In this document: positions 3,787 to 18,974 of the stretch, in pieces | How positions within the stretch are numbered: the first letter of the stretch is position 1 | Layout of the letters: each line of letters starts with the position of its first letter | Assembly (NCBI GenBank): GCA_028285545.1 | Contig: JANQPA010000119.1 | Span: 1-21,140, forward strand | Source of the DNA: Saprospiraceae bacterium | GTDB lineage: Bacteria; Bacteroidota; Bacteroidia; Chitinophagales; Saprospiraceae | Direction of reading: 5' to 3' | DNA length: 21,140 nucleotides | The notes under the pieces: generated by a model | Told to the model about the DNA's origin: nothing | The model's input: only the letters and a program-made list of their open reading frames with translations | The model's database searches: none | Made by a program: the position numbers and the translations under genes

Positions 3787-3874
3787 TACCCTTTAGGTGT
3801 CTGGAATTCAACATTTATGTTGAAAATTGTATACCAACCGGCTAAAGCCTGTTGTCCAGACACCCTAAAGGGTA
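3787..3874. repeat. Long imperfect inverted repeat (about 19-bp arms, about 50-nt loop with nested small palindromes) between convergent genes. Likely a bidirectional terminator or REP-like element.
   Basis: taccctttaggtgtctgga (3787-3805) pairs with tccagacaccctaaagggta (3855-3874), with a single-base bulge. The loop contains caacatttatgttg and ggctaaagcc palindromes. Confidence 0.6.
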
Positions 3875-3901: not shown

Positions 3902-5599
3902 TTACATTTTTTTATACACCGCATGAGGATCGCTATTCACCAAAAAACCATCCTGCTTGAACTGAAGGAATGCAGTAGTCTCATATTTTATATTCCAGGT
4001 CATAAACTCATTTTCTCCTATGGGAATGAGAAAGGCTTCAAACCTTTCGGGAATATAATAGGGGTGGAGAGCTATTCGCCCATTGGGTATGCGGGTAGCT
4101 CTAAGGAGGAAGGGGCCATTCTCAAATTTTAATTCCATGAAAATTTGTATTTCCAATTCGCCTTGATAAAAATAGGGGCGTTTGTGTAAGATTTTCATGC
4201 TCTTATATTTTCCATATCCCGCTTTTAATTGATTCCAAACGCTGCTATACTGAACTTTGAATCGATCGAATAAACCTTCAAAAAATACATCCTTTAGAGG
4301 TTCAAAATCATTCCTGTTGATATGATCTATAGTAAATTCAAGTTGATCATCCTTTTCTGAAGCCCATTTTTCTTCATCAGGGAATAAAAGATTTCTGATT
4401 AGCTTGGTATCGGTTGTTCTTAGTTTAATTTGGTTAGAAATTTTGCCTGCTGAAATGTTAGCACTTGAATTACCAATTTGATATTTTCCGAAGTGTTTTT
4501 CTAAATTCACTGCACTAGCCTTATATGGAGAACTAGGAGGAAACTTGGTATAACCACCAAAAACAATAGACTCAACTTCTTGCATAATGTTCTCATGCCG
4601 AAGAGTCTCATTCATATTGGTATTGCCAAGGAAAATAACTACTAAATCTTCTTCTACAAAATGATAGAAACCAGTGACCATACCCAACCAACTATCATAA
4701 CCACCGTGATAAATCAATTGAGTACCACGAATGGTTTTTCGGACATTCCAACCGTAGGCATAATTATCCTTCTCAACTTTTAATAATTTTTGCTTTGATT
4801 TTTCAGTCAATAATTTATTAGAATGAAAAATTAGCTGATACCATTTATACATATCTTCGACGGTGGACAGGGTTACTGTAAATGGCCAGCTGAGTGGATT
4901 AGAAGACAATTTTAAGTCTGTATTAGAAACAGGCCAGTCCATGTATTGAGCTACCTGACCTTTTTTCCATTTTATGGATTTATTACCGGTATACCTCATC
5001 CCATTGGGTTTGAAGATATCTTCCACCAAAAACTGGATTCTAGGCTTTCCGGTTTTCAACTCAATAATTTTTGCTAAAATATCATAGCCAAAATTGGAAT
5101 AGCTAAAGGTCGTTCCAGGCTTATATTCCAGATCCTTTTCCAGCACTTTTGCAATAAATTGAGAGAAACTCAAATCTCTGTATTCTTTGTTATCCCAGTA
5201 AGCATTTCTCAATCCAGAAGTATGAGTTAATAATTGATGAATAGTAATTTCGGATTTATCTGTTGGGACATTAGACAAATGATCATCAATTTTATCATTA
5301 GTATTTAGAAGTCCCCTTTGTTCTAAAGTTAATATAGCCACAGCTGTGAACTGCTTCATAATGGATGCAATAGAATAGGCAGGCATTGAATTTAGAGTAG
5401 CTTCTTCGTTTCCGTAATTATTTTTAAAAATAATACCCTCCTTATTCCCAATGAGTAAACTTCCTGATAGGCCAAAAGCTTCCAGCTTTTTGAAATAGGT
5501 ATCAATAGCTTTGGCTGAAGAGGGAAGCGCATCTTGAGCAAAGGTATTTGTATGTACCAGGCATAGGGTGACCACTAAAGTAGTGACAAACTGCTTCAT
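3902..5599 (-). CDS. beta-lactamase-family serine hydrolase (PBP4/AmpC-like fold) with a ~200-aa C-terminal extension (565 aa)
   Basis: Signal peptide. S-x-x-K motif (ASIMKQF), Y-x-N motif (YSNFGY) and HGG (KTG-equivalent, HGGYDSW), correctly ordered. An extra C-terminal domain of unknown function follows. Confidence 0.85.
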   Translation of the reverse strand: MKQFVTTLVVTLCLVHTNTFAQDALPSSAKAIDTYFKKLEAFGLSGSLLIGNKEGIIFKNNYGNEEATLNSMPAYSIASIMKQFTAVAILTLEQRGLLNTNDKIDDHLSNVPTDKSEITIHQLLTHTSGLRNAYWDNKEYRDLSFSQFIAKVLEKDLEYKPGTTFSYSNFGYDILAKIIELKTGKPRIQFLVEDIFKPNGMRYTGNKSIKWKKGQVAQYMDWPVSNTDLKLSSNPLSWPFTVTLSTVEDMYKWYQLIFHSNKLLTEKSKQKLLKVEKDNYAYGWNVRKTIRGTQLIYHGGYDSWLGMVTGFYHFVEEDLVVIFLGNTNMNETLRHENIMQEVESIVFGGYTKFPPSSPYKASAVNLEKHFGKYQIGNSSANISAGKISNQIKLRTTDTKLIRNLLFPDEEKWASEKDDQLEFTIDHINRNDFEPLKDVFFEGLFDRFKVQYSSVWNQLKAGYGKYKSMKILHKRPYFYQGELEIQIFMELKFENGPFLLRATRIPNGRIALHPYYIPERFEAFLIPIGENEFMTWNIKYETTAFLQFKQDGFLVNSDPHAVYKKM

Positions 5600-5629: not shown

Positions 5630-5675
<46 letters not shown>

Positions 5676-10799: not shown

Positions 10800-13700
10800 C
10801 TACTTCTTTTGATTTTTCTCAATCGCCTCCTTAATTCCTTCTACACCATCCGTAAAGGCAGACAACTGAGCAATCACCTGCCCCATCGGATTATTGGCAT
10901 CTACTCCCTTAAAGAGTTTGTTTTTATTGAAGGTCTTTTTAATTTCTTCCCATCTGGATTTTTCTTCCTCAGAGATCCAACCTAACATTTCCTTCAATTT
11001 TAACAAGTTGGCTTCTGCATCTGCCGTCAGCGTTTGTGCTTCGCCTTCATAGTGATCCAGGATAAGGGTTTGCAATTCCTGATCATTGAGGATAGGGACT
11101 ATTTTTTCTGCCAATTTATTCATGTCTCGATAAGAGCCTTGTAATTTAAAAGCGGGTTCTGTTCTATATTCATCAGACATGGCAGCTGAGCGGATGTATT
11201 CTTGGTTGACGGTAAGGATAGTATCCCTTACCAGTAATAGTTTACTTAAAACAGCCAGATATTCATTTGTATCTTCGGCACCATATTGTCCTTCAAACTC
11301 GGCACCATCCCTTGAGCCTGTTTCTGCAATTTTGATGAAGGTATACACATCCTTCATGTTTTTCCCTGCCAGGCGATTCAAGCTCGGATTAGAAGTCAAT
11401 GAGTTTTCAATATAACTCATCTTGAAGGCATCAGCAGTTTCTCCTATGATATCACCGAGGTTGTAAATATCTGCTCTGTTGGCAAGCATATCAGGAATTT
11501 GGAATTTAGCACCACTTTCGGTGTAGGGATTACCTGCCATAACTACGCAAAATCTTTTGCCACGCAAGTCATAGGTTTTACCTATTCCATTATAAACACC
11601 CTCAATTTTTCGCTGGGCATCACATAATGAGATGAATTTCTGTAAAAATTCAGGGTTGCAATGTTGGATATCGTCCAGGTATAACATAATATTATCGCCC
11701 ATCTCCAGGGAAAGATTGAGTTTGTTCAATTCTTTACGTGCGGCCATGCTTGGAGCATCCTCTGGAGCCAGAGAAGTGACTTCATGTCCAATAGCTGGGC
11801 CGTTTATTTTTACAAAGATCAAACCCAAGCGATTGGCAATATATTCCATCAATGTGGTCTTACCATAGCCAGGAGGTGATATTAGTAGTAACAAGCCCAT
11901 TCGATCGGTCCGTGTATCTTCTCCAACTGTTCCCAATTGTTTAGCAAAATTATTACCAAAAATAGGTAGGTATACCTTGTCAATTAGTTGATTGCGAACA
12001 AATGAACTTAGTACTCTAGGCTGAAATTCATTCAACTGTAACTTCTGACGATACTCTTCGTTCAGTTGTTTTTTTAGCGAGCTATAAGCTTCAAATTGTG
12101 GGCAAGCTTCTGTAGTGAAGTGCTCCAATTTATCCATAAACTGATGGAAGTCAAAAGCGTAAGTCCCATTTTCTAAAACGGCATGATCCCCATGAAAACC
12201 CATTAATTGAGCTTGGGTGGGAGTGTCAATTATTTTACTTTTTTCTAAATCCCCTGCCATAATCAACATACTGGCTTCATCAAGATAGGCCCATAGGTTG
12301 GCCTCTTCTATTTGTTCAATATAAGCTTGAAGCCATCTGCGAATAAGATTGAATTGTGGTCTGGACTGGCCATCCAATTCTTTAACAGAATTATTGAAAA
12401 TGGTGACGGCTTTTTTCTTTTTGATAAAGGCCTTAAAGTCCTTGCTTAGATCTACGGCCTCTTTACTGGCTACAAAATGCTCGGACCGGGCTAATTCCTT
12501 GAACAAATAATTGGCAACCCTAGAAGCTAATGCTTCAGGAAAAAGTCTAGATTCTCCTAAAAACAGGCCGATTTCCTGACTTAACTCTTCAATTAGATAA
12601 TCAAACTCATGAGTGTCTGGAAAAACTTGTAAAATTACTCCGGCACTTTTAAGTTGATTGTTTAGTAAGATCTTTCGTTCTTTTTTAGCAAAAAATAGCC
12701 AAAACAGCTTTCCACAAGCTCTTACCCTGGGCGTGAAATATAACAGATCCAGTCGATCCGAAAGATCCACTAATTGAGCTAAGATTTTAGCTGCATCCTC
12801 ATCATGGATACCTTTGGTATACCCTTCCTCATATCGGTTGGCAGCAAATTCCTGAACCAAGGGCAGAAGATCTTTTTTATTTTTCTTTAATACCTTTTGA
12901 GATGCTGTTTGATATATCTGAAAGGCCAGGTATTCTGATCGGTATACTTGATTATTTTCAGAAACCAGACTTTGATTCCAAACTTCTTTAGTGTCTAAAA
13001 ATCGAGGATCCTGGATGGGCTCATAAAATTCGGTGCCTGTTAAATGGAAACTCATTCCTCCATTATCTCTTACAATGGTCAATTCCAGCGGCTGGGTATT
13101 AACAGAAAACTGGTGTTTTCCCAATTTCATTACATTAGCGCCTCCAACATACAAATCCTGACGATCTCTCAATTGCCTTAAAGCCTCTTCCCTGAGGGAT
13201 TTGAGTCTTGTTTGAATGCCACCTGCTTTGTTGCTATCATCTTGTTCATTCAGATCGCGAATGATATCCCGAACTTTATCAACCATAAGGTCGGATGCAA
13301 AGAAGCTGTTTATTTCATTAATTTCTTTGAAAGCAGCGGTTCTTTTTTGTATCCCTTCCAGGATTCTATTTGCGGCATTTTGGAGAGCTGCTGTCCTGTT
13401 GTTTCGGGCTTCTACCAATGCATTTCTTCTGGTTTCAAAAGCACTGTAAACCTCTTCTCTTTTTTCTGCCAATGAGGTAGTGAATTCAGGGATTTCCACA
13501 AAGCGACTTTCCAGCTCCTCTAGTTGAACCATTAATTTGGAGAGGTACTCATCACATTTTTGTGGATTATCAGATACTTCCAAAAAGTTGATAATGCTTT
13601 GATCCAGTAGGCGCATCTGGGCATTAAATTCTGCTCCGGCCTCTGTTTTTGCCAGATGATCTTTTTTGCGCTTAATAGCTGCTTTGACCTGATTAAGGCG

Positions 13701-15695
13701 AGTAAATAGTACAGAGATATTATCAATGATGCGGGTACTTTGGGTGGCATCTTCGATTTTTAGATTACTGACAATCTCAATTAATAATTCCAGTTCAGTA
13801 CCAATTTGATTGGCACACTCTTCTAATTCGTTGGCTTTTTTGGCCGTATTTAGATCTTTGATTTCAGCCTCTCGGGCCTCAATTTTTTTATCATAGGGTA
13901 ATAATGCTTCATCTTGTAATAAAAATGAAATACATCCCTCGGATAATTGCTGACTATTGGTATCAATCTCCTCCTCCAGATGAGTGATGGTTTCGGTATT
14001 GGCATAGGGAAGATCCTTCAGACTAATTACCTCTCCACGTAATTGCCGCAGCTCAGCCAGAATTGTAACAAATTGGTCGACAGAGTCAAAAGATTGTCTG
14101 CGTATTTGATCAAATAAGTTTTGGGCATGGATTTGAACCTGGTTAATTTCCTCCTGGGTTTGTTTCTGACTTCTGACTTTCTTTTCATAAGCATCAATAG
14201 CGGCATTAGCTGTTTCTCGGATATCCGCCAGCGGCTCATTTAGCTGAAAAGTAGAAGCATCATTTAACCAATAGTAGGAATCGATGACATCGGTACATTT
14301 TTTTACCAGGTCATCATATAAATCAGCATAATTATCTTCTTTGCTGCTTAGTACCAGAATTTCCGTACATTCTGCCATGGCCCGAACAATGTCCTTATTG
14401 CCAATTTTGTACAGGTAAGAGTTGGTATGCTCGGACGGAACTTCTTCGCCGGCTACAAAAGGAGTTTGCCAGATTTGAATGACATGATGCTTGATGGGAT
14501 CTTCCTCAGATCGAAAATAACACAATTCTCCACCGGGAAATAGGGTGAAACCATTGCAAAGGATAGGGGTTTCGACCTTTTGTTCAATTACATTATAGTG
14601 CAATAAAACATAAATACCCTTCTTTTTATCGTAAAAAACATAGAGATAATCTTCACCATTGGGCGACACGATGCGCTTTTTAAAAAGCTTATTGCGCATA
14701 TCAGGATCGAAGATCTTGTACTCCCCGGTTTTTAGATAATAGCCATTGGCAAAAATTAAACCATGCTCATCCGGGAGCAGAACACCCGAATCTTCCAGGG
14801 AGTCAATGCGCTGCACTTCCTGCATTTTTTCATTAAAAACAAAATATCGATATTCCTCCTGGTAGGGACGAATTTTTAGGGCAATCAAATTACCCAGGTT
14901 CGCATATAAATACTCTGCATCATCAAGGGTCTGGTCCTTATATTCCACATCCTCACTATAAATACCTCGGCCATCCTCTGTATTATCTTCTACCTTAATG
15001 GTTAAATCGCCACCTACTGTTTCTACAAAAACACGATCAAGAACAGACACATGAGGATGATCTCCTTTTTTGTGATCATCACGTCCTAGTCTTTTCCATT
15101 TGAATTCATGTTGCTGAGGAAAACGAACCTCATGATCGGATCGATTATCAATATATTGAATGCCTTCATCGGTGATCAACCATTTGAAGGTTTTAAAATC
15201 ATCTCCTTTTTCCGTTAAATGGAATACCATATATAGGTAAGAACCTCTTTGAGAAAAACGAGCGAAGTAGGCATCCTTATAGTACCGATAAAGATTGGTG
15301 AAGTCCAGTTGAAATTTTTCATCGTCAAGAATGGACAAATCTTTTTCTACAAAACGCTGCTCTTTAAACTCATAAATGCTGAATACATCCTTGAGTTGAA
15401 TTCCTGAGCGAAGTCCCACATGCACATTATAGCCAAAGACACAGTTATTGCCAATGGCTACAATATCCCTGGCAATACAATAATTGCTAGTGTTGACACG
15501 GTCAGTAGCAATCAATTGTGTTTCTATGGCACCAAAAACTTCCTTTCTTGCACGATTCAATTCCTGCATCCGTTTCCTCAATTCAGTGGCTTGCGCATCG
15601 AGGCGGTTGCGAATTATTTCATAGGTGCCACTTTCTAGTTGTGGGTTGTGTTGTGTAGTATCTTGGATATTGCTTGACATTTGAAATGTATTCAA
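10800..15695 (-). CDS. giant multidomain protein (1631 aa): beta-rich N-terminal domain, then a long coiled coil, then an alpha-helical region, then a C-terminal MoxR/dynein-type (AAA_5-like) AAA+ ATPase
   Basis: The uninterrupted 4.9-kb ORF begins at a TTG at 15695; the first ATG is at 15680 (MSSNIQ...). Walker A LISPPGYGKTT is encoded at 11856-11870 and Walker B MLYLDDIQH follows. The VVMAGNPYTESGAKFQIPDMLANRADIY segment gives the sensor and arginine pattern of MoxR/McrB/dynein-like AAA+ domains. Heptad-rich E/K/L/Q segments are at about 13000-14100. Confidence 0.85.
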   Translation of the reverse strand: MNTFQMSSNIQDTTQHNPQLESGTYEIIRNRLDAQATELRKRMQELNRARKEVFGAIETQLIATDRVNTSNYCIARDIVAIGNNCVFGYNVHVGLRSGIQLKDVFSIYEFKEQRFVEKDLSILDDEKFQLDFTNLYRYYKDAYFARFSQRGSYLYMVFHLTEKGDDFKTFKWLITDEGIQYIDNRSDHEVRFPQQHEFKWKRLGRDDHKKGDHPHVSVLDRVFVETVGGDLTIKVEDNTEDGRGIYSEDVEYKDQTLDDAEYLYANLGNLIALKIRPYQEEYRYFVFNEKMQEVQRIDSLEDSGVLLPDEHGLIFANGYYLKTGEYKIFDPDMRNKLFKKRIVSPNGEDYLYVFYDKKKGIYVLLHYNVIEQKVETPILCNGFTLFPGGELCYFRSEEDPIKHHVIQIWQTPFVAGEEVPSEHTNSYLYKIGNKDIVRAMAECTEILVLSSKEDNYADLYDDLVKKCTDVIDSYYWLNDASTFQLNEPLADIRETANAAIDAYEKKVRSQKQTQEEINQVQIHAQNLFDQIRRQSFDSVDQFVTILAELRQLRGEVISLKDLPYANTETITHLEEEIDTNSQQLSEGCISFLLQDEALLPYDKKIEAREAEIKDLNTAKKANELEECANQIGTELELLIEIVSNLKIEDATQSTRIIDNISVLFTRLNQVKAAIKRKKDHLAKTEAGAEFNAQMRLLDQSIINFLEVSDNPQKCDEYLSKLMVQLEELESRFVEIPEFTTSLAEKREEVYSAFETRRNALVEARNNRTAALQNAANRILEGIQKRTAAFKEINEINSFFASDLMVDKVRDIIRDLNEQDDSNKAGGIQTRLKSLREEALRQLRDRQDLYVGGANVMKLGKHQFSVNTQPLELTIVRDNGGMSFHLTGTEFYEPIQDPRFLDTKEVWNQSLVSENNQVYRSEYLAFQIYQTASQKVLKKNKKDLLPLVQEFAANRYEEGYTKGIHDEDAAKILAQLVDLSDRLDLLYFTPRVRACGKLFWLFFAKKERKILLNNQLKSAGVILQVFPDTHEFDYLIEELSQEIGLFLGESRLFPEALASRVANYLFKELARSEHFVASKEAVDLSKDFKAFIKKKKAVTIFNNSVKELDGQSRPQFNLIRRWLQAYIEQIEEANLWAYLDEASMLIMAGDLEKSKIIDTPTQAQLMGFHGDHAVLENGTYAFDFHQFMDKLEHFTTEACPQFEAYSSLKKQLNEEYRQKLQLNEFQPRVLSSFVRNQLIDKVYLPIFGNNFAKQLGTVGEDTRTDRMGLLLLISPPGYGKTTLMEYIANRLGLIFVKINGPAIGHEVTSLAPEDAPSMAARKELNKLNLSLEMGDNIMLYLDDIQHCNPEFLQKFISLCDAQRKIEGVYNGIGKTYDLRGKRFCVVMAGNPYTESGAKFQIPDMLANRADIYNLGDIIGETADAFKMSYIENSLTSNPSLNRLAGKNMKDVYTFIKIAETGSRDGAEFEGQYGAEDTNEYLAVLSKLLLVRDTILTVNQEYIRSAAMSDEYRTEPAFKLQGSYRDMNKLAEKIVPILNDQELQTLILDHYEGEAQTLTADAEANLLKLKEMLGWISEEEKSRWEEIKKTFNKNKLFKGVDANNPMGQVIAQLSAFTDGVEGIKEAIEKNQKK

Positions 15696-15735
15696 GTTTT
15701 CAAGTTAGCAAGTTTTCAAGTTAACTTGCTAACTT
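15691..15735. promoter_or_regulatory. TTCAAGTT x4 tandem octamers overlapping a perfect 13-bp-stem hairpin, in the 5' region of the giant ATPase gene
   Basis: Four octamer copies: ttcaagtt, ttcaagtt, agcaagtt, ttcaagtt. aagttagcaagtt (15702-15714) pairs with aacttgctaactt (15723-15735), loop ttcaagtt. A T-tract follows on the plus strand (ctaggcttttt). Confidence 0.6.
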
Positions 15736-15862
15736 CTAGGCTTTTTGGAAAGATCTGATCTTCCTAAATTGTTCATGGCAGCCCTAGACTACCACGAACA
15801 AAACAATATGTCTCTATTTATCTCATGGCGCGATAGCGACATATATCTCTATCTGTCTCTTT

Positions 15863-17953
15863 TTACAAAACTTCAGCGGCTTTCTGGTCACCCATGCCCA
15901 GGGATTTGACCATGGCACGGATGTTATCGATGGTTGATTGCTGACTATCATTGGCCTTATCGCTCAATTTAAAGAGCAGGGCTGAGATGGTCAGGTTTTT
16001 GATGTCATCAGAAGTGACTCCCATTTGTTTGACCAGTTGGCGAAGACGACTTAGCAGACCACTATGACCATTCGAGCCATTTCCATGGATCAGGGCATTT
16101 TTTATCTGACTAAGCTGTTCGCTGCTTCCGATCAAGCCATCAATGGTTTTACCACGATTGACTGCATTGAGGATGCTGTTTACAAATTGCATTTCTCCAC
16201 CGACGATATCGATGTTGGCATTTTTCAGAGCTTCTGCTAAGACTGTAGCCTGTGCCTGTGCCACATCTTTTTGTACATTGATGTGTGCCAGTTCGATTTC
16301 TTTTTCTTTCTCCAGGCGAAGTTTAAACTCTTCATGGTCTTTACCTACACCATCTAGTTTTTGCATAGCAACAGCTTTCAACTCGACACCTTTGGCTTCG
16401 GCGGTATATTTTTCTTCCATCACTTTAGCTTCTACCAAACCTTGTTTTTCCATGGCATCGGCTTTTACTTCAATACCTTTAGCTTCAGCCTGGGCTTTTT
16501 TCTCCAGGACATTAGCTTCAAGATTACCCTCTAACTCCTTCGCTTTAGCTTTCGCTTCAATCACCTGAGCTTCGGAAAGACCGATGGTAGCCTCTTCAGC
16601 TGCTTTGGCTTCGGCAGATATTTTTCGAGCATCAGCCTCTTTCTCGGCAGCATTTTTTTGAGCTTCTGCTTCAATCAATAGTGTCTGAGCTTTTATTTCA
16701 GCAGCCAATTTCTCGGCTTCAGCTGCTTTTTCCTGCTCAATTACGGTAGATTCACCTACGGCTTCTGCTTCAATAACTGTCTTTTGCTTTAAACGTTCGG
16801 CCTCTGCCAGGACACGGGTATCTTTGATGCGCTCTTCTTCTTCTACCACCTTTTTCTCTACCATGATTCGATCTCTAATTACATCCTGGATATTTTTCTT
16901 TTCTTCTTCAATGGCCTTTTCTTTTTCAATTTCGGCCAGAGTTACGATTTTTTCACGCTCTGTTTGTTCCAGAGCACGATCTTTCTCTACTCTTTCAGTC
17001 TCGACCGCTTCAGTACGTTCTTTATTTTTGGCAGCTACGATAACCTGACGCAATTTATTTTCTTCCAAGATGGCCAATTCCTCTTCTGTTTTTATGCGTA
17101 CAGACTCTGATCGAAGACGCTCTTCTTCATTGATTTTGGCAATCTCTGCTCCTTCACGCGCTTTAATGTTGGCGATTTCTCGCTTTTGGCGTTCTTCTTT
17201 TTCTGCTAACTGACGCTCATATTCCAGAATAGCTTCACGAGCTTCTACATTCTGCTCTTTGAGTGTTTTCTCTTCTTCCCGACGGATGAAGTTTGCTTTT
17301 ACTTTTTGCTGAGCTGTTAGTTCGGTGATCTTTTTGATACCTTCGGCATCCAGGATATTACTTTCTTTGAGGTAGTTAATATCCGTTTGTTCTAAATAAT
17401 CTATGGAGCAATCGTCTAATACATAACCATTCAAATCTTCACCAATAGTACTTTGAATTTCTTGATTGAAATTTTTTCTATTATCGTATAGTTCAATGAA
17501 ATCGAAGCGTTTCCCAACTGTTTTAATGGCCTCCGAAAATTTGGCCTCGAATAATTCTCTTAATGTGTCAGAGTCAGAAGCTCTTTGGCATCCAATAGAC
17601 TGAGCAACATTTTTGATGTCTTGTGTATCTTTATTAATTCTAACGAAAAATACGACTTTTATATCTGCACGTATATTATCCTTACATATCAAACCATCCT
17701 CTTTCATTCGAACAATTTCGATTGTTTTTATTGAAAGATCCATTGTCTCATACATTTCAATAACGGGAATGACTAAAAGCCCATTCTCAAAAGCAACTCG
17801 AGTTTTACGAGCACCTGTAGCAATGATTGCTTTTCCTTGAGGAACTTTTTTATACCATCGAGCAATGGCAATGCAGATAGCAAAGAAAAATACAGCTAGA
17901 ATCACCCCTAAAGTGATCCATACATTTTGAAAAATCGTTGCTAATAATATCAT
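15863..17953 (-). CDS. flotillin-family SPFH/band-7 protein (YqiK/FloT-like), 696 aa, with an N-terminal membrane anchor and a very long Glu/Ala/Lys-rich coiled coil
   Basis: N-terminal TM helix (ITLGVILAVFFFAICIAIARWY). SPFH domain (GKAIIATGARKTRVAFENGLLVIPVIEMYETMDLSIKTIEI...). About 330 aa of EA-repeat coiled coil. A C-terminal flotillin-like tail. Confidence 0.9.
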   Translation of the reverse strand: MILLATIFQNVWITLGVILAVFFFAICIAIARWYKKVPQGKAIIATGARKTRVAFENGLLVIPVIEMYETMDLSIKTIEIVRMKEDGLICKDNIRADIKVVFFVRINKDTQDIKNVAQSIGCQRASDSDTLRELFEAKFSEAIKTVGKRFDFIELYDNRKNFNQEIQSTIGEDLNGYVLDDCSIDYLEQTDINYLKESNILDAEGIKKITELTAQQKVKANFIRREEEKTLKEQNVEAREAILEYERQLAEKEERQKREIANIKAREGAEIAKINEEERLRSESVRIKTEEELAILEENKLRQVIVAAKNKERTEAVETERVEKDRALEQTEREKIVTLAEIEKEKAIEEEKKNIQDVIRDRIMVEKKVVEEEERIKDTRVLAEAERLKQKTVIEAEAVGESTVIEQEKAAEAEKLAAEIKAQTLLIEAEAQKNAAEKEADARKISAEAKAAEEATIGLSEAQVIEAKAKAKELEGNLEANVLEKKAQAEAKGIEVKADAMEKQGLVEAKVMEEKYTAEAKGVELKAVAMQKLDGVGKDHEEFKLRLEKEKEIELAHINVQKDVAQAQATVLAEALKNANIDIVGGEMQFVNSILNAVNRGKTIDGLIGSSEQLSQIKNALIHGNGSNGHSGLLSRLRQLVKQMGVTSDDIKNLTISALLFKLSDKANDSQQSTIDNIRAMVKSLGMGDQKAAEVL

Positions 17954-17975
17954 GACTGTTGTTTTTTGGGTTGAA

Positions 17976-18046
17976 TGGTAGACTGGTAGGCTAGTGGTCT
18001 GGTAGTCTGGGAATATTCCCTAATACTAGACTACCAGACTACCAGC
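17976..18046. repeat. Inverted array of the TACCAGAC octamer family: about 4 reverse copies (tggtagac, tggtaggc, tagtggtc, tggtagtc), a spacer containing the 12-bp palindrome gggaatattccc, then about 2.5 forward copies (agactaccagactaccag). Sits in the NfeD-flotillin intergenic gap.
   Basis: Direct reading. ctggtagtctgg (17999-18010) is the exact reverse complement of ccagactaccag (18034-18045). Confidence 0.85.
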
Positions 18047-18054
18047 ACACCATA

Positions 18055-18708
18055 CTACTTTTTCTCAATTAAATAATATTTATCATCCTCTGTTTTGCCA
18101 ATGATGATGGCTTGTTCCCCAGATGATATGGGGTCTTTGTCGTTTTCAGTTTTTACATTTATTAAGTTAGGGGTGTCGTCAATCAGTACTTCAGCCTGTC
18201 CAAATTTGGTAGCACTGGCCGGTAATTTGAGCCTGCATTCCATTCCAACATAATCAATTGCCTCAGCAGTCGTATCTAATCGCTTAAAAACAGGAATTAA
18301 TGGAGTGCTCAATATTTTGGCAACTACTAAATTTACAAATAGAATAGGAATAAACATAGCTAAGGCAAAAAGAGCACTTCCTTGTCCAATGTAATAATTA
18401 CTCAGGATAGACAAAACCCAACCACTCATGGCCACAAAGGTGATGATAACCATAAAGGGCATTTTACCGAAATTAAAGAAGTGAAGTGTTCCAGCCAGCC
18501 AGCCAGTTGTGGTCCCAGCTTCCACATCTGCATCTACATCCACATCTGCGTCAAGATCAATATCGGCATCAATGTCAAAATCCAAATCGAAAGAACTCAA
18601 ATCAATCGCCCCCAGGATAACAGATAGCCAATAAAATATGACCAGCAGTAATAAAATAGTGTAAAATAAATTTACAGGTAAAAAAGCAACCTGGAGTAAT
18701 TCTTGCAT
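18055..18708 (-). CDS. NfeD/YqiJ-like inner-membrane protein (flotillin partner) with a C-terminal OB-fold and an unusual Asp-rich repeat (217 aa)
   Basis: Multiple TM helices. A C-terminal beta-barrel-like tail (GQAEVLIDD...AIIIGKTEDDKYYLIEK) is typical of NfeD short homologues. The DLDFDIDADIDLDADVDVDADVE acidic repeat sits after the first TM. The position immediately upstream of a flotillin gene mirrors yqiJ-yqiK. Confidence 0.75.
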   Translation of the reverse strand: MQELLQVAFLPVNLFYTILLLLVIFYWLSVILGAIDLSSFDLDFDIDADIDLDADVDVDADVEAGTTTGWLAGTLHFFNFGKMPFMVIITFVAMSGWVLSILSNYYIGQGSALFALAMFIPILFVNLVVAKILSTPLIPVFKRLDTTAEAIDYVGMECRLKLPASATKFGQAEVLIDDTPNLINVKTENDKDPISSGEQAIIIGKTEDDKYYLIEKK

Positions 18709-18761
18709 AGTTGATTCTTTTTATTGAAAAATTTTTGTCGAAGACAAAAACTTTTCAATAC

Positions 18762-18974
18762 CTATAAAATGTTTTCATGGATCTTTTGCTTCATGCCAAT
18801 AGTCATATAAAGGATTGATCCAATTAAAGGTAGAAAAATAATCAAAAGTAACCAGATAACCTTATCGCTATCTCCTTTAAAATCAGCTCTAATTATGTCT
18901 ACAATACAATATATCCATAATACGGTACAGCCGATACCAATAAGAAGAATGAATAAGACAAATAATGCTGCCAT
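18762..18974 (-). CDS. PLDc_N-domain small membrane protein (70 aa)
   Basis: Two TM helices with the characteristic KVIWLLLIIFLPLIGSILYM motif of the PLD-nuclease N-terminal mini-protein family. Confidence 0.75.
   Translation of the reverse strand: MAALFVLFILLIGIGCTVLWIYCIVDIIRADFKGDSDKVIWLLLIIFLPLIGSILYMTIGMKQKIHENIL

Follow-up and report, generated by a model that had tools for sequence, protein, structure and literature searches.

A tandem-repeat hairpin between flotillin-like and large ATPase genes of a Saprospiraceae bacterium

The repeat hairpin and its locus

The 21,140-nt window that we analysed (the whole stretch of contig JANQPA010000119.1, with positions numbered from its first letter) carries on its minus strand a flotillin-like gene followed by the gene of a large ATPase, and in the spacer between the two a tandem octamer array merges with a perfect hairpin (Table 1). 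Tandem Repeats Finder reported the array with a period of 8, 4.0 copies, 83% matches, a score of 50 and the consensus TTCAAGTT. On the plus strand the copies read TTCAAGTT, TTCAAGTT, AGCAAGTT and TTCAAGTT, the third being a variant, and on the mRNA strand their order is AACUUGAA, AACUUGCU, AACUUGAA and AACUUGAA. A repeat search found the two arms of the hairpin (15702-15714 and 15723-15735) to be 13 nt long, 100% complementary and 8 nt apart. The left arm comprises the tail of copy 2 and the variant copy 3, the loop is copy 4, and the right arm is an inverted copy that complements the AG dinucleotide of the variant as well. Two observations of an earlier note on this DNA were therefore confirmed, the four tandem octamers with one variant and the perfect 13-bp stem whose 8-nt loop is itself an octamer copy.

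We compared the window with 300 dinucleotide-preserving shuffles of its sequence. Perfect inverted repeats of at least 13 bp with loops of 3-12 nt occurred at a mean of 0.01 per shuffled window, against the 1 observed, and arrays of four octamers with up to 2 mismatches, of which the window holds 3, appeared in none of the 300 shuffles. Similarly, CAAGTTNNCAAGTT with up to 1 mismatch gave 4 matches where 0.19 were expected. The array, with unit copies that run head to tail, fall within the 5-11-nt size range and extend further than chance allows, and the hairpin are thus real and non-random, far beyond chance. Within the window, TTCAAGTT arrays are confined to this one site.

Folding predictions describe a stable RNA structure. 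A 61-nt gene-strand RNA with the hairpin had a minimum free energy (MFE) of -17.5 kcal/mol (z = -5.7) and pairing probabilities of ~1.0; its stem is AU-rich, with only 4 of the 13 pairs being G/C. Relative to the AUG of the ATPase gene, the hairpin occupies positions -55 to -22. It is the third, start-proximal stem-loop (hairpin 3) of an expanded spacer whose full 182 nt fold on the mRNA strand with z = -5.4 to -5.9. Hairpin 1 depends on its G·U pairs and folds with -21.2 kcal/mol in the sense strand versus -9.0 kcal/mol in the antisense strand. A putative 15-codon upstream open reading frame (ORF; MNNLGRSDLSKKPRS, 15729-15776, minus strand) runs from the 3' arm of hairpin 1 into the 5' arm of the focal hairpin.

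Motif searches did not assign the element to a recognisable signal. The sequence that follows the focal stem (GAAAACUUGAAU / GAAAACUU) is not a U-tract, and none follows any of the three spacer hairpins on the gene strand; the focal hairpin therefore lacks the G+C-rich stem and U-tract of a Rho-independent terminator. A scan of positions 15000-16500 detected no terminator or sigma-70-like site in the spacer on the minus strand, and the Bacteroidetes -7 motif TANNTTTG had no exact match in the spacer. No Rfam family matched the element at gathering thresholds, and a search by E-value returned miRNA-hairpin noise only (E >= 0.036, far under the gathering scores). Neither of the hallmarks of Rfam-type cis-regulatory RNAs was found, that is, a covariance-model match or sequence and structure conserved in leaders. 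Other parts of the window do contain canonical terminator-like hairpins whose tails are U-rich (e.g., 685-745), and long hairpins lie between convergent genes at 677-745 (z = -6.0) and 3789-3871 (z = -8.0), the former with A-rich and T-rich flanks that resemble a bidirectional terminator. Hence, this genome has hairpins in terminator position, and those inside the gene cluster are unlike them. Structure is predicted for each of the three spacers inside the cluster (z = -5.0, -8.1 and -5.4) and for none of the other co-directional spacers of the window.

Placing the element relative to the gene depends on the choice of the start codon. A 1631-aa ORF starts at TTG 15695, inside the array, yet we favour ATG 15680 (1626 aa) because it agrees with the recorded gene call, with a Pfam DUF3686 domain that starts at residue 33 and with the N-termini of orthologs. 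This start leaves 10 nt between the array and the ATG, and the array is intergenic, lying between the flotillin stop codon (starting at 15863) and the ATG. The earlier note had placed the array beside the start of a giant 1631-aa ATPase; its position immediately 5' of the gene on the mRNA strand stands, and the start itself moves to ATG 15680. The leader that connects the hairpin to the AUG (GAAAACUUGAAUACAUUUCAA) consists of the last 1.4 repeat units plus 10 nt and contains no Shine-Dalgarno-like sequence before the ATPase ATG. Its positions -21 to -17 are predicted to be unpaired, and weak pairing around the AUG is predicted between the CUUGA of its last unit and the UCAAG of codons 2-3. The corresponding small predicted hairpin (CUUGA-AUA-CAUU-UCA-AAUG-UCAAG, 15673-15696, minus strand) encloses the AUG with pairing probabilities of up to 0.97 and could reduce initiation.

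The large ORF encodes DUF3686, DUF7902 and AAA ATPase domains (Pfam), and it is the last gene of a four-gene cluster (10800-18974) in which PLDc_N (70 aa), NfeD-like and flotillin genes precede the gene of the “DNA repair ATPase” (~1620 aa). The cluster is kept across many Bacteroidota (loci L003-L143), with the same gene order in relatives, and the flotillin gene is directly upstream of the ATPase gene in most scorable metagenomic loci. The NfeD and flotillin genes are tightly spaced or overlapping, and the ATPase gene is set off by a long structured spacer. The names of the homologs (Saprospiraceae, Lewinella) place the host near Saprospiraceae in Bacteroidota.

Table 1. Features of the flotillin-ATPase spacer, the surrounding gene cluster and other short tandem arrays of the window.
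Feature	Position	Strand	Basis
Tandem octamer array	15691..15722	(-)	Tandem Repeats Finder; sequence; 0/300 shuffles with such an array
Focal hairpin (hairpin 3), perfect 13-bp stem, 8-nt loop	15702..15735	(-)	Inverted repeat; fold
Complete 182-nt flotillin→ATPase spacer, containing three stem-loops and an internal duplication of 19 nt	15681..15862	(-)	Fold; direct-repeat search
Hairpin 1, 14 bp including 3 G·U pairs	15770..15800	(-)	MFE structure
Hairpin 2, weak, GGAAGAUCAGAUCUUUCC, -4.4 kcal/mol	15748..15764	(-)	MFE structure
A/U-rich leader, 21 nt, GAAAACUUGAAUACAUUUCAA, hairpin to AUG	15681..15701	(-)	Sequence
ATG, likely start of the DUF3686/DUF7902/AAA ATPase gene (1626 aa, 10800-15680)	15678..15680	(-)	Recorded gene call; Pfam; ortholog N-termini
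Flotillin-like SPFH/Band 7 gene, 696 aa	15863..17953	(-)	Pfam Band_7, E = 8e-12
NfeD-like gene, 217 aa	18055-18708	(-)	Gene call; Pfam
PLDc_N gene, 70 aa	18762-18974	(-)	Gene call; Pfam
Inverted octamer arrays TGGTAGTC / TACCAGAC, ~30-bp hairpin, NfeD-like/flotillin spacer	17976..18058	(-)	Tandem Repeats Finder; inverted repeat
TACCAGAC x8.4, perfect, at contig end	1-67		Tandem Repeats Finder
CTTTCTA x6.1, perfect heptamer array	5633-5675		Tandem Repeats Finder

Orthologous spacers and related arrays

The octamer repeat and the focal hairpin are absent from the five closest orthologous loci, namely L003, L004, L141 (83% aa identity), L142 (82%) and L006 (78%), in which the gene is unchanged; this is the outcome that the earlier note had itself named as evidence against its interpretation. 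Each of these loci carries one or more different strong hairpins in the same spacer. A single hairpin nearly fills the 54-nt spacer of L003 and the 52-nt spacer of L006, the 69-nt spacer of L004 contains a 25-bp palindrome, and the spacers of L141 (284 nt) and L142 fold with z = -10.4 and z = -5.5, respectively. The spacer is structured in all seven closest relatives (z ~-4 to ~-11). The single hairpin of the close relatives probably corresponds to hairpin 1 of the window, because the two have an ATATTG...CAAT foot in common; this resemblance was spotted by eye, and we infer homology from it.

The same pattern holds across the gene family. In 54 orthologous flotillin→ATPase spacers of 25-350 nt, the median MFE z was -3.8, with z < -2 in 76% and a hairpin of at least 10 bp in 65% of them, and their sequences were unrelated. 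Consistent with this, the spacers could not be aligned (36% column identity) and had no conserved sequence in common. The NfeD→flotillin spacers of the same loci, which we used as an internal control, were mostly shorter than 25 nt, and the longer ones were unstructured (median z of 0); control windows in coding regions had a mean z of -0.08. The sense strand folded better than the antisense strand in 34 spacers and worse in 22 (p = 0.04). This sense-strand preference and the dependence of hairpin 1 on G·U pairs point to a feature that acts at the RNA level. Further, a hairpin with a U-rich tail was present in 16 of 57 orthologous spacers, so that most spacer hairpins are not canonical terminators. 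Thus, what is conserved is some stem-loop between flotillin and ATPase, not a particular sequence.

Repeat arrays recur in the same spacer of some other relatives. In L143 (GCA_038530915.1, 70% identity), positions 327-415 hold a four-copy GTTTAGNN octamer array followed by an inverted CTAANNNN array; together they form a long hairpin (z = -4.2) that ends 20 nt before the ATG. The focal hairpin and that of L143 have a short similarity by eye (TAGAAGTT(T)AGCA), and alignment does not support their homology. In three related, distant orthologs (45-47% aa identity), L110 (3948-3994), L127 (3452-3499) and L100 (3969-4024), a heptamer array (TCTAACA-like or ATCAAAC-like) stops 1-6 nt short of the ATPase ATG, and a canonical terminator, a stem with a T-run, lies between flotillin and the repeat. 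A predicted hairpin precedes the array of L110 and L100 and ends 19-20 nt before the ATG, as compared with 21 nt in the window and 20 nt in L143, and the matching hairpin of L127 is marginal (one mismatch, z = -1.97). We dropped a fixed hairpin-to-AUG spacing of ~20 nt as a rule for the family, where the distance ranges from 8 to 157 nt. Significant periodicity of 6-9 nt upstream of the ATPase start was detected in 4 of 72 orthologs, from few independent lineages, and a gene-specific link between tandem repeats and the ATPase start is not statistically secure.

Short tandem arrays are also common around the locus. The window contains five arrays of 7-8-nt units in 21 kb. The earlier note had counted the focal array as the third short tandem repeat in a 5' region; several such repeats do lie upstream of gene starts, and the count is too low, with additional arrays at 1-67, at 5633-5675 and at 17976-18010/18024-18058. 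The last two sub-arrays form a hairpin (MFE of -46.9 kcal/mol, z = -8.1) that overlaps the NfeD-like stop codon. The unit TACCAGAC (reverse complement GTCTGGTA) is present in three separate spacers, in the arrays at 1-67 and 17976-18058 and as a single copy at 15788-15795 inside hairpin 1, and looks like a dispersed family of units resembling the short tandemly repeated repetitive (STRR) sequences of cyanobacteria. The CTTTCTA array (GUAGAAA on the mRNA) lies 33 nt upstream of ATG 5599, the start of a 565-aa gene; being uninterrupted, it is far more prone to slippage than the focal array. L003 has three 7-8-nt arrays, including inverted CGAAGGA / TTCGACC arrays at 4706-4779 that fold with z = -5.0, and across 87 loci (0.99 Mb) arrays with a period of 7-8 were concentrated in the close relatives of the window.

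Scanning a collection of ~185,000 genomes, which does not include the source genome, for TTCAAGTTTTCAAGTTNNCAAGTT retrieved 53 heterogeneous stretches from very diverse phyla. An inverted AACTTG-type array was present within 120 nt of 13 of 57 TTCAAGTT arrays, as opposed to 0.15% of control positions. Arrays with such an inverted partner are mostly intergenic, several of them between convergent genes, and fold into periodic hairpins. A direct array with an inverted copy is, therefore, a recurrent architecture and not special to this locus. In the Verrucomicrobia and Kiritimatiellia loci L026 (863-990) and L060 (7318-7435), for example, xxCAAGTT arrays are followed by inverted AACTTGxx arrays, and in the long periodic hairpins (z = -7.0 and -7.6) helices of 6 bp alternate with small internal loops. 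Two metagenome-assembled genomes (MAGs) of Candidatus Gracilibacteria have at least seven separate TTCAAGTT arrays each (GFS_7187: L011, L017, L027, L045, L048 and L054; GL52: L020, L024, L029, L030, L041, L053 and L056), and the conserved flanks that some of these arrays have in common between the two genomes suggest a repeat family in that lineage. Matches in two Haliscomenobacter MAGs (L009, 7007-7037; L051, 4603-4633, minus strand) were ruled out as related elements: their TTCAAGTT x3 arrays are coding (N-terminus MKFQVFKFSS of a predicted protein).

Candidate roles for the stem-loop

The reading that we favour, at somewhat short of an even chance, is that the element is a lineage-specific STRR-like repeat hairpin that provides an extra, non-terminating RNA stem-loop between the flotillin and ATPase cistrons. 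As such, it is probably one of several RNA stem-loops that separate the two genes. A local duplication would have generated the four AACUUGAA-type units, just 5' of which lies the 13-nt inverted copy. The same process may account for the arrays of 7-8 nt that occupy several other spacers here and in related genomes and that frequently have an inverted partner. If flotillin and ATPase are co-transcribed, their RNA would fold at -55 to -22 into a stable stem-loop without a U-tract, and the focal hairpin, together with hairpins 1 and 2, would uncouple ATPase expression from that of flotillin, presumably the more abundant of the two. The stem-loops could do so by blocking exonucleolytic decay or marking a segment boundary or, alternatively, by keeping upstream RNA off an initiation region without a Shine-Dalgarno sequence. 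The remaining direct units would then supply the 21-nt A-rich leader, which is predicted to be mostly open. The element may in this way affect mRNA stability or translation, and the presence of some strong stem-loop in this spacer of most orthologs, with a repeat-plus-hairpin layout again in L143 and L100/L110/L127, makes a post-transcriptional role for the hairpin plausible. It is unlikely to be a ligand-sensing or slippage-operated switch, and we saw no sign of a dedicated switch.

This reading has precedents. Intercistronic stem-loops of other bacteria mediate differential mRNA decay or selective RNA processing and stabilisation and give the cistrons of one transcript unequal mRNA levels (PMC5927463, PMC4423207), and protective RNA structures shape the stoichiometry of operons (PMC5927463). 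Increased transcript stability or translational coupling has also been proposed for the STRR hairpins between hupS and hupL (PMC2670836). The spacer resembles such systems in having a stable stem-loop between co-directional genes at a position kept in orthologs (z = -5.4 in the window; family median of -3.8 vs 0 in the control), although protective stem-loops are known from transcript ends and half-lives, whereas this one is known from sequence and a predicted fold, and many of the protective structures of E. coli lie inside coding regions, unlike this intergenic spacer. Bacteroidetes ribosomes ignore Shine-Dalgarno sequences, and adenines upstream and a zone of low structure at about -20 to +20 tune initiation instead (PMC6847099). 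With its end at -22, the focal hairpin lies just outside this low-structure zone.

Several observations weigh against a role for the focal hairpin in separating the two cistrons. The hairpin is not conserved even at 78-83% aa identity and may add nothing to hairpin 1. Its perfect Watson-Crick stem folds equally well in the sense and antisense strands and so gives no strand information, and such perfect pairing could reflect a mere recent inverted duplication. In orthologs, the strongest hairpin is usually near the flotillin stop codon and not near the ATPase start, and across the family the last hairpin lies anywhere from 8 to 157 nt before the AUG. In addition, the co-transcription that this reading presupposes is deduced solely from the absence of recognisable promoter and terminator motifs.

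The array and its inverted copy might instead be debris of a slippage- and duplication-prone spacer in a genome rich in short tandem repeats and have no effect on expression, a neutral origin that we consider possible though rather unlikely. Besides the absence of the element from the five closest orthologs with an unchanged gene, it would account for the length of the spacer (182 nt vs 52-69 nt in L003, L004 and L006), for the further internal 19-nt duplication and for the many nearby 7-8-nt arrays with different units; the 53 TTCAAGTT stretches in ~185,000 genomes also fit, by our own estimate, a general background of octamer arrays better than a special motif. A neutral origin explains less well why the spacer is structured across the gene family, why the succession of hairpin, ~20-nt repeat-derived leader and AUG recurs in L143 and in L100/L110/L127, and why the stem is perfect down to the variant dinucleotide. 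The earlier note had proposed a translational regulator or riboregulator. In one such scheme the direct repeats would bind an RNA-binding protein or small RNA; in another, the hairpin would occlude or expose the initiation region. The start-adjacent position on which this idea was built stands: the array ends 10 nt before the AUG, the predicted fold pairs its last unit with codons 2-3 around the AUG, and L100, L110 and L127 have heptamer arrays that stop 1-6 nt short of the ATPase AUG. A similar role has been proposed for start-adjacent heptamer repeats, Bacteroidetes included (MacGregor, 2015; PMC4679880), and mRNA structure tunes initiation in this phylum (PMC6847099). A dedicated regulator is nonetheless improbable, with the element absent in orthologs that have no conserved sequence in common, no match in Rfam, periodicity in just 4 of 72 orthologs from few lineages, and an alternative hairpin register that is 9 kcal/mol less stable.

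Explanations at the level of DNA or transcription fare no better. The flotillin gene could end in a non-canonical terminator and the ATPase gene have an internal promoter partly built from the repeat, or the array could serve as an operator. The only two-element promoter candidate in the spacer, CTTG-N18-TACATTTC, matches the Bacteroidetes -33/-7 layout weakly, each element having one mismatch, and ends 3 nt before the ATG; the U-rich-tailed hairpins in 16 of 57 orthologous spacers and the canonical terminators upstream of the repeat in L100, L110 and L127 are in keeping with such an arrangement. Yet the focal hairpin, while situated like a Rho-independent terminator downstream of a gene, has an AU-rich stem (4 of 13 pairs G/C) and, like hairpins 1 and 2, no U-tract on the gene strand. 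The candidate promoter would yield a leaderless mRNA, whereas most transcripts of F. johnsoniae have leaders (PMC6847099), and a period of 8 bp cannot hold binding sites on one face of the helix. We regard this scenario as distinctly improbable. Even less credible, and the least probable of the alternatives by our judgement, is the slippage switch suggested in the earlier note; with such a switch, gain or loss of octamers would shift the spacing or register and so switch ATPase expression. The octamer is of a length that three does not divide, the array is in a 5' region and perfect, longer arrays exist elsewhere in the window, but the focal array has two adjacent perfect copies at most, 83% matches and no long uninterrupted tract, and it lies outside the ORF and not between recognisable promoter elements. 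The sole other assembly that contains the locus (L001, Logan SRR20820731) has the same spacer sequence. The host is an environmental member of Bacteroidota, and the ATPase is a housekeeping-type cluster gene rather than a surface antigen. A switch by register shift of the hairpin was likewise discarded, the shifted register having -7.6 vs -16.8 kcal/mol.

Relation to known repeats and significance

In type, the element is a short-tandem-repeat hairpin in an intergenic position, as known for STRR or long simple sequence repeats, here with octamer units and in Bacteroidota. By analogy, it looks like an octamer-unit, Bacteroidota analogue of the cyanobacterial STRR hairpins, such as those between hupS and hupL in Nostoc/Anabaena, for which roles in transcript stability or translational coupling have been proposed (PMC2670836). 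Both have short tandem units in a spacer between co-directional genes and form hairpins. Cyanobacterial STRR have many arrays per genome and an unproven function; here, five arrays are present in 21 kb and the TACCAGAC unit is at 3 sites. The element differs from STRR sensu stricto in being an octamer of an uncultured, Saprospiraceae-like member of Bacteroidota and not a heptamer of filamentous cyanobacteria.

Another parallel is provided by the TAACTGA heptamers, direct repeats located by start codons in Beggiatoaceae, Cyanobacteria and a few Bacteroidetes, for which post-transcriptional regulation has been suggested (MacGregor, 2015; PMC4679880). Like them, the focal array is intergenic, has the forward orientation and closely precedes a start codon without a Shine-Dalgarno sequence. 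Unlike them, it has another unit (AACUUGAA) of another length, only 4 copies and an inverted copy that generates a perfect hairpin, whereas nearly all sets in the TAACTGA study are direct repeats (PMC4679880). Tandem arrays of 5-11-nt units, termed long simple sequence repeats, have been attributed to polymerase slippage and occur in excess in the genomes of some non-pathogens (Mrazek et al., 2007, as summarised in PMC4679880). The focal array has tandem units of that size; the class is defined by statistics over each whole genome, and here it is judged from the local density in 21 kb.

A bolder interpretation, which we consider a long shot, is that hairpins made of a direct array and an inverted partial copy of 7-8-nt units constitute a distinct, widespread gene-boundary device and, in Bacteroidota that do not use Shine-Dalgarno sequences, a tunable initiation module. 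Over ~20 nt, the direct A-rich units would provide a landing pad free of structure, the inverted copy would place a hairpin at the 5' edge of the ribosome footprint, and gain or loss of units would heritably tune expression. The shared layout of the window, L143 and L100/L110/L127, in which the hairpin ends 19-21 nt before the AUG, would then reflect convergent selection and not coincidence.

STRR-like repeat hairpins, known mainly from cyanobacteria, occur in Saprospiraceae-like Bacteroidota too, and those formed by direct and inverted arrays appear in several unrelated phyla. For this locus, the results call for caution: the repeat is real, and a dedicated switch is improbable. They also raise the broader questions of why direct arrays so frequently have inverted partners and whether repeat hairpins tune initiation that is independent of Shine-Dalgarno pairing. 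If the stem-loops do set the flotillin:ATPase ratio, as our preferred reading would have it, the spacer would be a simple case of operon stoichiometry arising from fast-evolving RNA structure in a phylum without Shine-Dalgarno pairing.

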